Shown: one piece after another, positions 18,339-26,500 of the stretch
Numbering within the stretch: the stretch's first letter is position 1
Layout: every line of letters begins with the position of its first letter
Assembly: GCA_010356995.1 (NCBI GenBank)
Contig: ML996699.1
Coordinates: forward strand, 216,323 to 280,322
Length of the DNA stretch: 64,000 bases
Direction of reading: 5' to 3'
Source of the DNA: Trichodelitschia bisporula
Lineage: Eukaryota
Made by a program: the position numbers and the translations under genes
Notes under the pieces: generated by a model
Seen by the model: only the letters and a program-made list of their open reading frames with translations
Databases searched by the model: none
Told to the model about the DNA's origin: nothing

Positions 18339-20848
18339 ATGTTTCGCGCGCAGCAAAACGCCTTTGACGCCGTGGTTGGTGAGTAGCAGGCACCCGTCAA
18401 ACATGCCGCCAGTTCACGGTATCTTGGAAGGGCTGGTCTGACTGTTACGTGTAGGCAAGGCAACCGACGAGAACCTCACGAGCGAGAACTGGGAATATAT
18501 TCTGGTACGACCTTACCCCGCCTTCGATCGAGAGCCGGCGGCTTGCGGCGCAGTACAGCGTAAAGCTGGTTGGGACACTTGCTAAGTGTGATGTGACTGC
18601 AGGATGTTTGCGATAAAGTCAGCGCAGAGGATACTGGGTGAGAAGCCCCTTCGGCATGCGACTCGGGTTACAGATCGAGTTCGATAGCGCCCGGCATGGT
18701 TCATTACTGACTTGCGGACTTCGTAGTGCGAAAGATGTCGTGGCCGCCCTTATCAAGCGCCTGGCACATCGGAATGCCAACGTTCAGTTGTACACTCTCG
18801 AGGTACGCTCTGCTGTGGCTGACAAGTTGAGTGTCGACTGACTGAACAGCTCGCCAATGCTCTCTCACAAAACTGCGGCGTCAAAGTTCACAAGGAACTG
18901 GCATCGCGCAGCTTTACCGAAGCGCTCCTGAGGTTGGCTGGAGACAGAGTTTGTACTCCTCCTATGTTCTGGCCCTAGCTAATCGACGAAGAACACCCAC
19001 CAGCAGGTCAAGTCTAAGATCCTTGAGCGCATGGAGGAGTGGGCGGAGATGTTCTCCTCCGACCCGGACCTTGGAATCATGGAGCAGGCATACATGAGGC
19101 TGAAGACGCAGAGTATGGCTCCTTGGATAGGGAGACGTGCCCGCTAACGCAACAAGATCCGAATCTGCACCCACCGTCGAAACCCGTCAAGACGCTCATT
19201 ACTGACGCGGACCGCCGACGCGAAGAAGAGGAGCTTCAAATGGCGCTTGCGTTATCCGTTAAAGACCGAGCAACTGCATCAACGGCTGCATCTACGGCCA
19301 CCTCCCAACCGCAATCTTCCTACCAGCCCGAATCCTCCCAGGCCCCCCAGCTGGAGCCGCAGCCCACTCACCAAGGCACCACGGCAGCGACTGTTTCGCG
19401 CGTCCGCGCCCTCTACGACTTCCAGCCCTCGGAGCCTGGTGAACTTGCCTTCCGTAAAGGTGACGTCATCGCGGTTCTCGAATCCGTCTTCAAAGACTGG
19501 TGGAAGGGCTCGTTGCGTGGCCAAACGGGTATCTTTCCGCTCAACTATGTGGAAAAGCTACAGGACCCCACTAGGGAAGAACTGGAGCGCGAGGCGCATA
19601 TGGAGTCCGAAGTATTCGCCGAGATGAAGAACGTGGAAAAACTACTGGCGTTACTGAGCACTAGCTCGGAACCCGGTAGGGGGGATGTCCGCGACAACGA
19701 AGAAATTACGGTAGGTTTCCCTTCTATTTTTGTGGACGACCTAACAGTCTAGACTTTGTATCATTCAACTCTCGCCATCCGGCCTAAGCTCATTGAACTT
19801 ATTGGGAAGTATTCGCAAAAGAAGGGTAAGGCACTTAGCCCTTAATGCGCAATAGCTCACATCTTTAGATGACTTCACGCAGCTTAACGAAAAGTTTATC
19901 AAGGCTCGCCGCGATTACGAAAACCTCCTGGAGGCCTCCATGTCTCAGCCGCCACAGCCAACCTATGGGCGACCTGCTTACACCTATGGTGGGGCTCCAA
20001 CGACCGCGCAGGCCCCTGGCTATTCTGTAGGCGGTGCATATCCCGCTCAAGCACCAAACCCAGAAGGTCGCTACTTCTCTCCCGCGCCGCAGGAGCCGAA
20101 TTATCCACCGCAGAACGCCCCGCAGCCGTTTTATTTCGTCCCCCCGTCACAACAGGCTCAGGGCCAGCCGCCTCGTCCCTCCTCCAATACTAATGCTTCT
20201 AGTGACGACCTCTACGCCAACCCTCCTTCTCGGACAAACACCGATAGTGCCCGTCCGCAAACTATGTACGACACCATTCCGGCTGCCGGTGGACTTAGCG
20301 CTCCTGGGGCTGCTGCGCCAGCGGCAGGACTCGGTTTGCCGCAGGAGCTGGCAAGCGGCTCCTTTGACAGCCCCATCGACAACCGCCACAGCTACGCCGC
20401 CCCGCCGAGCCAGCAGTACGGTGGCGCCCCCCCGGCTCAGACGTCCCAACCCTGGCGCCCCTACGGAGATCCCGCCGCCAACCCCGGCCCTGCCCCGCAC
20501 TCTCCCTCCTCCCAGTATTCAACCCAGGCGCCATCCGCCATCGGTGCGCTACCCTCGCAGAAGCCCAGCCACCCGCCAGGCGCCTCGGACCCCTTTTCAG
20601 ATCCCTACAGCCAGGCCCGGCCCGGTCAAGCGCAGGTGAGGCCACCGACCGGATCTCCGGGCGCAGAGTCGCCGAATGCGAAGCCCTCTGGCCCGTATAC
20701 GGCGTATCAGCAGCTCCCGCCTTCACAGGGCCAGCCTCAGCCTCAGGCACCCGGTTACCAGGCATATGCGCCGGCCGGCGGTGCGCCGGGGAGGTGGAAT
20801 GGGGTGCAGGCGGGTGCAGGTCGTGACGAGGAGCAGTATTACCGGTGA
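18339..20848 (+). CDS. HSE1: ESCRT-0 subunit Hse1/STAM (VHS, UIM, SH3, GAT, Pro/Gln-rich tail), 9 exons
   Basis: VHS motif AKATDENLTSENWEYILDVCDKV...RNANVQLYTL; UIM REEEELQMALALS; SH3 VRALYDF...DWWKGSLRGQTGIFPLNYV; GAT LYHSTLAIRPKLIELIGKYSQKK. Confidence 0.95.
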
Positions 20849-21344: not shown

Positions 21345-21416
21345 TCTTCCGTAGTCTAGTGGTCATGATTTCCGCTTGTCACGCGGACGGCCCGGGTTCG
21401 ATTCCCGGCGGGAGAG
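21345..21416 (+). tRNA. tRNA-Asp (anticodon GTC), intronless
   Basis: Acceptor stem TCTTCCG/CGGGAGA plus discriminator G; D-arm TAGTCTAGTGGTCATGATT; anticodon arm TCCGC-TTGTCAC-GCGGA; T-arm CCGGG-TTCGATT-CCCGG. Confidence 0.97.
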
Positions 21417-21425: not shown

Positions 21426-21809
21426 GCTCTCATCCTTTTCACAAGAGTGCACAAAGTAAACTACTGTGGCTAGATATTGCTATGTTTCAATTTTTTGATC
21501 TGATATCAACTCTGGGCGTTGTGGTCCTCTGAATTTGTACTGAATGATCCTAGAGATACGGCTCAATTTACAGTACCACTGGATCATTAGCCGACAAGGC
21601 TTACTCGTTGAGAGCTTTCCCAGCTTCTGTCACGGGAAGTGAACGAACAAGGCTCGGGAGTCTATTCTTCATGCTATTAATGCCAACTGCCTCCCGTACG
21701 GTTGGAAATCGAGCTACAAACTTTCCTTCCAACCCAGATGAAGCTTGAATTCTCCAGCCCACGAAAGCACATCGCAGATGCCACCAGTCCCACTTCGTCA
21801 ATGCAGCCG

Positions 21810-23264
21810 TTACTGCTCCATGAACACCAACTCCCCATTAACATTCTCGATCCTCTCATCCAACTCCACCTTCGCCTCCCTCCACCTCCCACTACGATCC
21901 CTCAGCAGCGCAACCAGACTCCCGCCCTCAAGACACACCTCCTTCGCACTAGCCATGAAGTTCCCATCCGCGTCCTCAGGGCCGACCCACGCAAACGTCC
22001 CGTCATTATTCGCCAGCCAGCGGTTTAACGAGAGCTCGGACCAGTAGTGCTCTCCTTGCACGCAGCGGCATCTGGCCGAAAGGGTGCAGTTCCAATTCTG
22101 GGACGTCCTGTCCTGGGAGGTGCCGATGCGGATGTCGCGCGAAGTGTGGGAGAAGTTGCCGCGTTTTGGGCCTACGACTGGGTCGCTCCCTGGGGCCAGG
22201 GCGGGCATGTGAGGTTCGACGATGGGGACTGGGAGCTCGTGGGATGGGGGCTCGGGCTCCTGGGCGAGTGGGACTTGTCGGACCCCCGCTACATATTGGC
22301 GAAGGTAGGCCACGTAATTGGGAGGCGCGGACTCCTGGGAGAGTTCGTTGGGGCGGGGGGGCGCCGTTGCTTGGGGGGCGGTATTGAGGCCTGCGTTGTC
22401 GATAATGTCCATGATCAGCTCCTTAGCATACGCACGGTTGGCCTCGGTGCCAATCAAGTTGATGACGGGACGCAGGCCATTGATGTCCTCATCCGCCCAA
22501 ATGATACTGATGCCGCATCCACTGCGTTCCCGGAGGTCTGCGAAGGTCTGACTATCAAGGCCGAGGAGGCCAAAAGCCCAGTGCGGCACCATGATCTGCT
22601 CTTGGTTCTCATCTTCTTGGAGGGGCTGCTGAGCGGCAGCCGGGTTCGCATCACGGGGCGGAGGTTCTGAAGGCGGGGCGCTGGTGGCGAGCGCCTGGGA
22701 GAGTTCGGTGGGATTGGGAGGCGCCGTCGCTTGGGGAAGGGTGTTGATGCGCTCATTGTCGACAATCTCCATAATCAGCTCCTTAGCAGCCGCACGGTAG
22801 GCCACGGGGCCAATAATGTTGATGGGACGTAGGCCATTGTTACTCTTGTGCGCACCAAGGATATTGATGTCGCATCCACTGCGTTGCTGGAGGTCCGCGA
22901 TGGTCTGACCGCCACGGCCAACGATGAGGCCAATAGTCCGGTCCGGCACCATCATCTGCTCCTCGCGATCATCTTCTTGGAGGGGCTGCTGAGCGGCAGC
23001 CGGCTTCGCATCACTGGGCTGAGGTTCTGAAGGCGGGACGATAATGAAATTGTCCCGGTTGTTGAGGGGATATGGAAGCCGAACGGGTAGAGAATAGCCC
23101 GTAGCTGCCGGGAATTCGCGCCCTACGTCTTGGTGTCCGGTATACGCGTCGGAATACACGCCGCGGGTGTATGAGCGAAAGCCATGTGGGACGGCGGGCT
23201 GGGGTGCTGGGTCCGAAGCGCTAGTTGCGTCGACCGACGGACTAGGCGTAGGCTTCATGACCAT
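21810..23264 (-). CDS. Intronless 484-aa protein with two tandem KH domains and a C-terminal cyanovirin-N homology (CVNH) domain
   Basis: KH1 is QMMVPDRTIGLIVGRGGQTIADLQQRSGCDINI...LRPINIIG...AKELIMEIV; KH2 is a diverged copy. CVNH is GNFSHTSRDI...LSARC...SELSLNRWLANNDGTFAW...GNFMASAKEV...LDERIENVNGELVF. ATG in a good context (caaaATGg). Confidence 0.88.
   Translation of the reverse strand: MVMKPTPSPSVDATSASDPAPQPAVPHGFRSYTRGVYSDAYTGHQDVGREFPAATGYSLPVRLPYPLNNRDNFIIVPPSEPQPSDAKPAAAQQPLQEDDREEQMMVPDRTIGLIVGRGGQTIADLQQRSGCDINILGAHKSNNGLRPINIIGPVAYRAAAKELIMEIVDNERINTLPQATAPPNPTELSQALATSAPPSEPPPRDANPAAAQQPLQEDENQEQIMVPHWAFGLLGLDSQTFADLRERSGCGISIIWADEDINGLRPVINLIGTEANRAYAKELIMDIIDNAGLNTAPQATAPPRPNELSQESAPPNYVAYLRQYVAGVRQVPLAQEPEPPSHELPVPIVEPHMPALAPGSDPVVGPKRGNFSHTSRDIRIGTSQDRTSQNWNCTLSARCRCVQGEHYWSELSLNRWLANNDGTFAWVGPEDADGNFMASAKEVCLEGGSLVALLRDRSGRWREAKVELDERIENVNGELVFMEQ
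22330..23040 (-). repeat. Internal tandem duplication with a 360-nt (120-aa) period, each unit holding one KH domain plus linker
   Basis: 22610-22680 and 22970-23040 are nearly identical (atcttcttggaggggctgctgagcggcagccgg...gaggttctgaaggcggg) at an exact 360-nt offset. Outer boundaries are approximate. Confidence 0.9.
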
Positions 23265-23333
23265 TTTGAAGGCGTGGAGGAGTGCAGTTTGGAGTTCAGA
23301 TGGTAGACAGGGCGAACAACCATGGGGGCCTGG

Positions 23334-23418
23334 CTGCTGGTATTAAGTATTGGCGGTGGTGAGGGATCCGGATCCTGCTGGTATTAAGTACTGGCGGTGG
23401 TGAGGGATCTGGATCCTG
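23334..23418 (+). repeat. 41-bp tandem duplication just upstream of the KH-CVNH gene
   Basis: ctgctggtattaagtaYtggcggtggtgagggatcYggatc at 23334-23374 and 23375-23415, with 2 mismatches. Confidence 0.92.
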
Positions 23419-23566
23419 ACTTGGCGGGGTGGGCGTTAGGCTGACGCGTGTGGACCCTTGGACCACGGGGCGGTGCGGGGTTGGGGCTGTGTCGGTGTAA
23501 GGTTGAACCCCATGAAGTGGTACAGTATGACAGGTACAACAACCGGACTCCGGTCCATCTCGACTT

Positions 23567-26500
23567 CTATTCATGTTTGTTCTTCGCACTATCCTGCGAA
23601 GTAGATTGCATGATTGTCGATACCGTATCATCCCTCGACGGCTCTAAGATGCCGCCGGTGATGTGGAACGAAAAGTCGAGCTCGCCAACCAATTCTTTAA
23701 CATTTCTACCTTGCTCAGTTTCATCCAGTTTCCAGGACGCGAAACCTACGTGAGTAAGACCTCAAGGTCGGAAATGATAGACTGCGTCGAAATCTGGGTC
23801 ACTGCAAAGGCAGCGTACCCGGGCTCATGAATGTGCCGCACGCTCAAGATGTCGCGGTCTAAAGCCTCCATCTTCGATGTGAGCCCATACGGCGCCGGCG
23901 CGCGGAGATATGGCGGAAGTGGTTGGGCGCTGATGATGCTGGAGGAGAGAATGGAGAGGAGGGAGGTGATTTCATGAGAGGTAGGACGAACGGAAGACAT
24001 GACTCCCTGGAAGTCGCGGCACCACTGTGACTTGCGGAACTCTGCAGATGCCAGGAAAGTGCTGGAGGAGTAGCCCATGAGAGTCGTGTAGCTTGCAATG
24101 CTGTCAAGAAGTCAGCTCTGTCCGCCTGCAGACCCGATGTACATACTTTTCTGCTGCGGTGATGATGGCGTCATATCTTGCCTTAGGAAATTTACCACCT
24201 AGCATCAGCTCCCATTTTGTCATCTGAGAATACATCTTCAGGCGAGAGATGAGGATCATCACTTTAGAATAGACCTTAAGTCGGGCCGCGTCCAGGGGCC
24301 TGAGGGAATTGTTCTCCGGGTCCTCCAGAATCAACTCGGCCGTATCCTGTTGAATTCTCGACTGAATGGTTTCATGGATTATCGAATAGTAGCTTGCCAG
24401 GAGGTAAAGCGTTGCTCCTACGTCCTTTCGCAGCTGCGAGTGCTCAGTGATGGGGTAAGGCAGCATCGTCCAGATGAAGGCAACGAAGAGACCGCCAGCC
24501 ACCGTGGCAAGGCGGAAGACCCCAATCAGCGTGATCGAGAAATACTTCTGGCCGTTGGCAGTTATCGCAGCAACGCCAATCTTCCTGACTTCCAGTTCGT
24601 ACCCGATGATCAAGACGCTAGTCACGATGGATACCATACCGACGCTGACGAGCTGCGGCATTTTCAGCAGTACGTATATTGCAAGGCTGACAAAAAACCA
24701 AAGGAAGACGAGGATGCCAGCTGTTTGCCCATCTGGGATGTAGTAGATCAGGAACGAAGCGAGCATGGCGATGACGGTTCCGATGACCCGGAGGACGTAA
24801 CTGAAGAGACTCTGCCCAGCGGTTGGTGCCATTGAAATTGCCACCATAATCATGGACCAGAGGAGACGATTTTCAAGGAAGAAAGTCTGCGTGTCATGCA
24901 GGTATGAGATGATCCCAATGGAAAGCGTGGCCAGGGCAACCCGAAAGCCAAATGCGGACTCCGAAGACCGCAAGCCCGCCGCGAGGGCACGGAGGAATTC
25001 TCCTATCCGTTCGACTATGTTTTGAGGTGGAAGGTGTTCCGGATCCCGACGGGCGGAGTATGCTTGTCCCATGGCAACTACTTTGTCGGACTCGCGAAAG
25101 CGCTCGTCATAGCTATCGCCATCGTCCCGAGAGTAAAACGTGCTGATTATCCATTTCCGGAGGCGCTTTGCTCCCGGTAAGATGAGGTGGCTTCGCGAAA
25201 GCTTTCCACTATCCATGAGGCCGTCGGCGAAATGAACCATATCAAGAACGGCCAGTCCAGTTTTGAACATGAGGTACTCCAACTGGAGATGTCAGCAAGA
25301 GTACCAGAACTTAGCATCCACACTCACGTATAGGAGGACATAAAGCTGTCGCTGGTGGCGCTCCGGCCCATGCGTGAACCAGGTGATGTCAAAGTTGTCG
25401 ATACCGAACCGAGGCTCGTTCTCATAGACCTCCTCTTCCACCTTCAAGCCCCTGCGCTGGCACCATTCATCAAGTGCAACGTTTTGGTCCTCCTTGAATT
25501 GCTTGATGATCTGATCCATGTACGCCGCAAATCCAGTATCTCCGGGCCTCGTCACATCTCCCTCAGCCTCAACGTCTGACTTCCGAGGCCGTGGAAGCAT
25601 TGAAAACTGCAGCATGATGTGCTCTAAGCCTTCCTGCACGGCCTCAGTGATGGCCGTAAAAGAGTTGTGAAGGAGCTTCATATTGTCGGACCACTCCGTG
25701 GTAAGCCGCCGTCTCTTTTCTTCCTCGACTGGATCTAAGCCCTCCTCAACATTATGCTCCGTCCAGTCATTCGCTGCAGCGATCCTTTGGAAGATGTCCG
25801 TCACGGCACCCAACCCCAGAACCGGAATCATGATCTGGCGGGTCAATTTGTTCATTTCTTTGAGATCGTCAGGGCCCAGCCTGCCCCAGGCAATCTCACG
25901 CTTTGCGAACGGCAAATCGCCTTGGAGCTTGCTGTGCAAACCCATCATGGCGCCGACGGCAGCTTTGACGGCTTTAGCTTCTGGGTGCAGGCTGCTTCCC
26001 CTGTCATCGACTGTGATGTTCTTGGTGAAATCGCTCGGCTTTTCGAGACTTTGTAGGTACGATCTTTGGGTCTCGACGCATTCCTGTAACGATTTCAGGA
26101 ACCCCGAAAATTCCATCATCACGATCTTGCGGGAGCTCGTCGGGAATACGACGAAATGGACTCCGGTGGCGATGGCGAAGCCAGTGAGGAAGCAGTAGAG
26201 AATCTTCAGGATGAACCGAATCCCAGCGGTCATGTCCTGTAGCAGGGAGGAATAGATGCTGATGACGATGACGAAAATGGAATAGATGATGGCAGGTACA
26301 ACGAGTTGCGGACTGCGAGCTCGGAGGGAATTGATGACATAGACCTGCATGAACATCCAGATTCCAGACACTGCTGAAGCAGACGAGTTGTACGTCGTGA
26401 ATCCCGTTGCCGTTCGGGGGGGTGGTGGTTCACCTGAATGCTTCCGCGCCTGCGTCACGCAGTAGACAGAGAGCAGCCCAACGGCCGCCGCTAGACATGC

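Follow-up and report, generated by a model that had tools for sequence, protein, structure and literature searches.

A single reading frame of Trichodelitschia bisporula joins a well-conserved cyanovirin-N-like lectin domain to a captured and duplicated KH module

The 64,000-nucleotide (nt) stretch of contig ML996699.1 of Trichodelitschia bisporula (Dothideomycetes, Phaeotrichales) analysed here, referred to as the window, carries on its minus strand a gene in which two KH-type units are followed by a cyanovirin-N homology (CVNH) domain. A first-pass annotation of this DNA had described a single uninterrupted frame of 484 codons, which was confirmed as one open reading frame (ORF) from ATG to TAA at 21810..23264 (all positions are those of the whole stretch; Table 1). 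About 30 codons 5' of the ATG the frame is closed by a stop, which the preceding gene of the same strand does not reach. When the 1455 nt were shuffled 2000 times by mononucleotide, no shuffle remained open, which indicates that the 484-codon frame is not an effect of composition, and each of the other five frames holds 6-30 stops across the same 1455 nt. The gene is that of the deposited 'hypothetical protein EJ06DRAFT_88005 [Trichodelitschia bisporula]' (P0002), for which the precomputed Pfam lists give PF00013 and PF08881 only. In a Pfam scan of the whole protein, CVNH was matched at amino acids (aa) 371-480 with 73.6 bits (cut-off 24.5) and KH_1 in two stretches with 65.7 bits; these matches bear out the coordinates first assigned to KH1, KH2 and CVNH.

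Transcription was assessed with assembled contigs of the public runs X1 and X2, which stem from one sample of one study and whose run type was only guessed. The contigs skip two short segments of the neighbouring upstream gene, 44 nt (23706-23749) and 46 nt (24101-24146), whose minus-strand ends are of the GT..AG type; they therefore derive from complementary DNA (cDNA). Three contigs (21691-22638, 22614-22998 and 22974-23705) tile the ORF with 0 differing letters and without a joint inside it. The gene is real, transcribed and single-exon. A transcript across the KH-CVNH junction is documented in so far as the single contig 21691-22638 holds the CVNH domain, the linker and KH2. The contig 22974-23705 runs unbroken from the last exon of the upstream gene over the gap of about 330 nt past its stop and into the ORF, reflecting either overlapping untranslated regions (UTRs) or read-through.

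Table 1. Features of the KH-CVNH gene and its transcribed flanks in the window
Feature	Position	Strand	Basis
Complete single-exon coding sequence, 484 codons + TAA	21810..23264	-	ORF; cDNA-like contigs tile with 0 differing letters
N-terminal 76 aa, Pro/Ser/Ala-rich	23037..23264	-	No homologue, Pfam match or hydrophobic leader found
Tandem duplication of 360 nt, 2.0 copies, 81% matches	22334..23037	-	TRF; repeat families D1-D3, spacing 357-360
Repeat unit 1 (aa 77-190), linker + KH1	22695..23036	-	Pfam KH_1 at aa 102-166 = 22767-22961
KH1 GxxG loop, G-R-G-G (aa 116-119), intact	22908..22919	-	Aligned to family-invariant GRGG
Repeat unit 2 (aa 197-310), linker + degenerate KH2	22335..22676	-	KH2 at about 22407-22601
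KH2 GxxG site, now G-L-D-S (aa 235-238), adjoining one-residue deletion	22551..22562	-	Alignment of units
Pro-rich linker, aa 311-366	22167..22334	-	Composition
CVNH domain, both lobes, aa 371-480	21825..22154	-	Pfam, AF2 model, family-conserved columns
72 nt (aa 440-463) treated as intron in deposited model	21876..21947	-	Retained in contigs of both runs
Transcribed 3' flank (3' UTR at least to here)	21691..21809	-	X1 contig starts at 21691
Transcribed 5' flank, continuous with last exon of upstream FUSC_2-like gene	23265..23705	-	cDNA-like contigs

The two KH-type units go back to a single module. Each unit of 114 aa comprises a linker and one KH domain, and the two are identical at 279/339 nt and 74/113 aa and are separated by two indels of 3 nt each. 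The region had been taken for tandem KH RNA-binding domains; this part of the initial description did not hold, as the pair is a 360-nt duplicate of one captured module, in which KH2 lacks the GxxG loop and falls below the Pfam cut-off. The source of the module could be narrowed down by comparison with known proteins. Among the best 120 of 133 whole-protein matches, the 119 relatives other than the protein itself were fungal FUBP-like proteins. Three KH domains were present in 11/11 FUBP-like proteins that were mapped, and in all 11 the identity of KH1 was 56-67% to the middle KH domain, 24-30% to the first and 35-40% to the third. The similarity to the middle KH domain reaches about 15 residues into the upstream linker, and the likeness of 56-67% covers KH1 together with the linker preceding it. 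A resemblance of KH1 to one FUBP-like module had been noted in the first-pass annotation, and the motif given there matches the consensus of the 119 fungal middle-KH modules. Judged from these alignments, the KH part was copied from a fungal FUBP-like protein with three KH domains, of which it took over the middle one with its linker; a tandem duplication of the copy followed. The chimeric architecture by domain capture proposed in the first-pass annotation is real, and its donor KH module has been identified. An origin of KH2 from the third KH domain of the parent was rejected, because the units share 82% of their nt at a spacing of 360 nt; tblastn can also place the KH-b and KH-c domains of the parent over the two repeat units.

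Related structures exist in the human FUBP family, with sequence matches in the PDB to FUBP2 (KSRP; 2jvz) and FUBP1 (6y2d and 1x4m). Unlike the FUBP-like proteins, the KH-CVNH protein contains the middle module only, present twice, and lacks the first and third KH domains. PF26594 and PF22891 are carried together by 86/119 listed FUBP-like proteins and are both absent from its Pfam list. By domain content, the KH-CVNH protein is not a member of the FUBP-like family. A quick IQ-TREE analysis of 39 rows, consisting of the two copies and of the 37 of the 119 modules that bear a species name, over 87 columns, placed both copies in a starred set with 11 Dothideomycete rows (Shimodaira-Hasegawa-like approximate likelihood ratio test, SH-aLRT, 95); the class labels on the rows were assigned from general taxonomy.

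Both KH copies have evolved far faster than the parent since capture. When the units were scored alone, KH1 reached 53.7 bits and KH2 18.1 bits with KH_1 (PF00013; cut-off 21.5). At the 54 columns that are at least 95% conserved in the 119 middle-KH modules, none of which was dropped, the family residue is kept at 40 by KH1 and at 31 by KH2. Over all aligned columns, 15 changes from the family majority are common to both copies and hence predate the duplication, 15 are found in KH2 only and five in KH1 only; at 14 positions the copies differ both from the majority and from each other. Comparison of the units across 113 codons gave a ratio of nonsynonymous to synonymous divergence (dN/dS; Nei-Gojobori) of 0.95, and for the KH core taken separately the ratio was 1.23; the synonymous divergence (dS) was about 0.2. 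Repeat-induced point mutation (RIP) was rejected as the cause of this divergence in view of 33 transitions versus 38 transversions and a GC content of 61% in both units; the RIP indices were 0.29-0.36 for TpA/ApT and 1.7-1.8 for (CpA+TpG)/(ApC+GpT). The excess of transversions between the units is an unusual spectrum.

In the AlphaFold2 (AF2) model both units adopt the beta-alpha-alpha-beta-beta-alpha order of a KH fold, with a predicted local distance difference test (pLDDT) value per block of 78-92 for KH1 and 65-94 for KH2. They are joined by a disordered linker, and the predicted template modelling score (pTM) is 0.36. A Foldseek search with the KH model matched tandem-KH and single-KH structures with TMt values up to 0.83. 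With its intact GRGG loop, KH1 may still weakly bind single-stranded RNA or DNA. Exchange of GxxG for GDDG abolishes nucleic-acid binding while KH domains stay folded (PMC3413153). With its GxxG site lost, KH2 is by analogy, and in agreement with the model, best read as a folded pseudo-KH domain incapable of nucleic-acid binding. Comparable cases are the GDDG mutants of KSRP and the extended di-KH of KHNYN, in which a folded KH domain without a functional GxxG stands beside another KH domain. The defect was engineered in KSRP and lies within an old, conserved protein in KHNYN, whereas here it follows a recent tandem duplication.

The C-terminal part of the protein is a lectin-type domain covered by the CVNH profile (PF08881) at positions 1-102/102, with 76.6 bits when the C-terminal 174 aa were scanned alone. 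The AF2 model of the C-terminal 121 aa, computed with 38 relatives, reached a pLDDT of 93.1 and a pTM of 0.84. Foldseek returned 25 matches at E <= 0.001, with template modelling (TM) scores of 0.93-0.94 and a root-mean-square deviation (rmsd) of 1.3-1.4 A to cyanovirin-N, and the matches listed were all cyanovirin-N, engineered variants of it, CVNH proteins of fungi, ferns and cyanobacteria, or the related lectin microvirin. The model thus predicts a two-lobed, pseudo-symmetric cyanovirin fold that is complete with the 72 nt of Table 1 included, in line with the full two-lobed domain reported at the outset.

An exhaustive HMMER search with aa 340-484 yielded 355 proteins at E <= 0.001, the best match other than the protein itself being 42% identical, and the best 150 of the 355 were inspected. 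The top local BLAST identity of the CVNH domain among the matches listed was 53% over 64 aa. Conservation was evaluated on 53 relatives drawn from the 144 BLAST-matched of 149 listed CVNH relatives; in these the CVNH domain ends at most four residues from the C-terminus, at least 96 query residues are covered and the length is at least 150 aa. The KH-CVNH protein keeps 27/28 columns conserved at >=90% in this set and 37/41 columns conserved at >=70%, for which the median of the members is 38/41. Its CVNH domain is 35-48% identical to the 53 relatives (median 43%, versus 46% within the family), and 7/53 members are at least as divergent. By these measures the lectin half is an ordinary, well-conserved member of the C-terminal-CVNH group of the Pezizomycotina. 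The idea of a young gene is not supported by either half: the KH copies have 15 derived residues in common, no longer keep 14 and 23, respectively, of the 54 conserved positions and stand at a dS of about 0.2 from each other, and the CVNH domain, at the identities given, is no fresh copy of any sampled gene.

Named examples of this Pezizomycotina group include an Aspergillus 'cyanovirin-N / putative glutamine-serine-proline rich protein' and CVNH-domain proteins of Pseudomassariella vexata and Apiospora hydei, to which BLAST identity is 39-46%. As in these relatives, the CVNH domain of the KH-CVNH protein is located at the extreme C-terminus, opens with (K/R)GNFS and ends with -LVF-, is preceded by a low-complexity Pro-rich stretch and comes without a leader peptide. 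No hydrophobic leader was found in the first 40 aa, where the best 8-aa Kyte-Doolittle window is 0.15, consistent with the original statement that a signal peptide is missing, and no membrane span is indicated, the best 19-aa Kyte-Doolittle window of the whole protein being 1.2. In the alignment with cyanovirin-N, nothing corresponds to the cysteines of its two disulfide bonds, which fits an intracellular protein. The binding-site residues of cyanovirin-N are matched only in part in this alignment.

In many of the relatives the CVNH domain is preceded by a Gln/Ser/Pro-rich region and by a glycine zipper. The zipper was recognized by pattern in 27/53 and as PF05433 in 11/149, whereas the KH-CVNH protein has no such element (no PF05433 at E <= 1) and contains the two KH-derived modules instead. 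Its N-terminus and linker show no significant similarity to the bodies of the CVNH relatives: in local alignments with five of them, 7/500 shuffles equalled the score in the best of 15 tests with 500 shuffles each. The comparison with shuffles therefore does not show convincingly that the N-terminus descends in situ from a CVNH gene of the Gln/Ser/Pro-rich kind. A region search with the N-terminal 76 aa, over 33 candidates, recovered nothing but the protein itself, and no Pfam match was found there.

The joint occurrence of PF00013 and PF08881 was found only in the deposited protein itself among the best 120 of 133 whole-protein relatives. When proteins 266-847 aa long were searched with the CVNH part, the protein itself was the only match, and KH_1 was present at E <= 1e-5 in 0/149 of the nearest CVNH representatives of any length, the best of the 355 matches. 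The partner domains of CVNH among these 149 relatives were the glycine zipper (11), ankyrin repeats (4), HET (4), LysM (4) and TPR (1). None of 103 pattern matches in metagenome contigs was confirmed as a relative, the ESM Atlas gave no usable match, and no further CVNH or KH copies were found in the 64-kb window. No report of a KH-CVNH fusion was found in the library of papers searched; according to PMC4632110, only three CVNH architectures had by then been reported, and further ones exist. The first-pass annotation knew of no described KH-CVNH architecture, and no second such protein was found in the searches made. The protein combines two known domains in a new way and has so far been found only in Trichodelitschia bisporula, which belongs to a sparsely sampled lineage. 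In the same survey, the proteins P0159, P0172, P0257, P0264, P0122 and P0127 carry 1-4 CVNH copies fused to HET cell-death domains and/or ankyrin repeats, an arrangement that hints at CVNH as a recognition module in fungal proteins of the non-self or incompatibility type.

The structure that the CVNH model matched best was MoCVNH-LysM (2l9y / 5c8o), the type III CVNH of Magnaporthe oryzae, in which a CVNH lectin and a second binding module are likewise combined in one chain. In this 'type III' protein a LysM domain is inserted in the CVNH domain and the two are reported to behave as independent units (PMC4392113). The partner in MoCVNH-LysM is a carbohydrate-binding LysM domain between the CVNH lobes, while in the KH-CVNH protein it has a nucleic-acid-binding fold and is N-terminal. 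The combination of LysM and CVNH recurs in many fungi (4/149 relatives), that of KH and CVNH in 0/149.

Taken together, we lean towards regarding the protein as a CVNH lectin that carries a new, drifting KH-derived arm, and not as a tuned coupler of RNA and glycan binding. The linker and middle KH domain of a FUBP-like gene were captured and then duplicated in tandem over 360 nt. Selection would act on the C-terminal lectin, predicted to be intracellular from the missing leader and the missing counterparts of the disulfide cysteines. The KH-derived half would be tolerated, with its position ahead of the lectin keeping it in frame, and both indels are indeed multiples of three. The dN/dS of 0.95 in the KH half, suggestive of relaxed constraint, argues against a finely tuned role in RNA binding. 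Several points weigh against this interpretation. A dN/dS near 1 between paralogues is also compatible with positive selection or subfunctionalisation, and the lack of stops in the units is weak evidence, since 3822/20000 neutral simulations (19%) stay open as well. The constraint on the lectin was judged solely from the family-conserved positions that it keeps. The placement in the tree is unsure, given 87 columns and end branches of 2.77 and about 10 versus a median of 0.13. The contigs extend into the upstream gene, so that the RNA need not come from an own promoter of the KH-CVNH gene.

Some of these observations would equally suit an expressed chimera without function, that is, a recent accident drifting towards a pseudogene in which the open frame and the transcription are leftovers. 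Its restriction to a single species, the orphan sequence of the N-terminal 76 aa, the near-neutral dN/dS of the KH units and the share of neutral simulations that keep them open all fit, and read-through from the upstream gene, with which the contigs are continuous, could account for the RNA. The retention of 27/28 conserved columns and of a confident fold in the CVNH domain would, however, be unexpected given the amount of change in the KH half, and neither the indels in multiples of three nor a 484-codon frame that is open where the other frames hold 6-30 stops are what such a relic would readily show. We therefore consider a functionless chimera unlikely.

A bifunctional adaptor, the speculative function put forward in the first-pass annotation, was rated lower still. 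Here KH1, perhaps aided by KH2, would bind specific RNA and the CVNH domain glycans of the mannose type, which would couple the recognition of glycans or glycoproteins to mRNA control or to the sensing of viral or foreign RNA. Both domain types are present on one ORF and one cDNA-like contig, KH1 retains GRGG and a score of 53.7 bits next to an intact CVNH domain, both KH units are predicted to fold, and the in-frame indels leave them translatable. These features have to be set against the loss in KH1 of 14 and in KH2 of 23 of the 54 positions that are at least 95% conserved in the parent family, the dN/dS of about 1, the missing GxxG of KH2, and a combination that was not seen to be kept over time in any orthologue in the searches made. 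The most far-reaching form of this proposal, in which the protein would be the first natural one to couple a working KH module to a mannose-binding CVNH lectin, with the pseudo-KH2 as structural partner of KH1, is a long shot. If true, the protein could act inside the cell by holding RNA on high-mannose glycoproteins or by detecting foreign RNA, for instance that of mycoviruses, jointly with glycans. A functional protein of this kind would connect a lectin with nucleic-acid binding in an unreported way and would offer for study a compact scaffold, made by nature from one KH and one CVNH domain. Even when read soberly, as a lectin with a drifting KH-derived arm, the gene offers a clean, datable case of gene birth by domain capture, with the donor identified to one of three KH domains plus its linker, the later tandem duplication still visible in the DNA, and one KH copy seen in the course of giving up its binding loop next to a lectin half that remains conserved.

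The deposited model differs from the ORF in one respect: it has 460 aa and lacks aa 440-463 but is otherwise identical. The claim of an intronless gene is accordingly supported by contigs without a joint across 21691-22638 and contradicted by the public model, in which these residues are removed. Were the 460-aa product real, a 72-nt GC-AG intron would be spliced out and the C-terminus would be truncated and no longer that of a lectin. A GC..AG placement does exist, and contigs may drop rare variants, which leaves room for a minor spliced form. The contigs of both runs nevertheless retain the 72 nt, and the residues encoded there align with strands of cyanovirin-N, lie within high-confidence strands of the AF2 model and complete the 102/102 positions of the Pfam profile. 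The segment allows eight equivalent intron placements owing to a flanking 7-nt direct repeat, and of these only GC..AG is near-canonical. False introns are a known outcome where a direct repeat flanks a segment. The deposited intron is probably a mis-prediction and thus an annotation error, and a genuine 460-aa product is very unlikely. This corrects the public gene model, whose predicted intron takes strands out of the CVNH fold.

That the KH and CVNH parts were joined only in the genome assembly is extremely improbable: the internal 360-nt repeat does break the short-read contigs at 22614-22638 and 22974-22998, but these are homologous points of the repeat 360 nt apart, as expected from a fork in the assembly graph, and the junction of KH2, linker and CVNH is spanned, without a single difference in either run, by the contig 21691-22638, which was assembled independently.

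In the vicinity of the gene, the large exon of the upstream neighbour (24104-25270) matches FUSC_2, a family resembling fusaric-acid-resistance proteins, with 42.7 bits, and the neighbour is hence not of a classical transporter family. Its two short introns are confirmed by contig joints; the more general statement that most genes of the window have introns was checked for, and agrees with, that gene only. A 41-nt tandem repeat (23334-23418; 2.1 copies, 95% identical) is situated in the transcribed leader, 70-150 nt 5' of the start codon of the KH-CVNH gene. On the opposite strand, about 400 nt past the stop of the ORF, lies a tRNA-Asp (GTC) gene at 21345-21416 (+), where the contigs show several loose ends, as a multi-copy tRNA gene would give. 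Further along, the plus strand contains at 19940-20848 a Pro/Gln/Ala-rich ORF of 302 aa with no Pfam match at E <= 0.001, which possibly forms the low-complexity end of what the first-pass annotation called HSE1.

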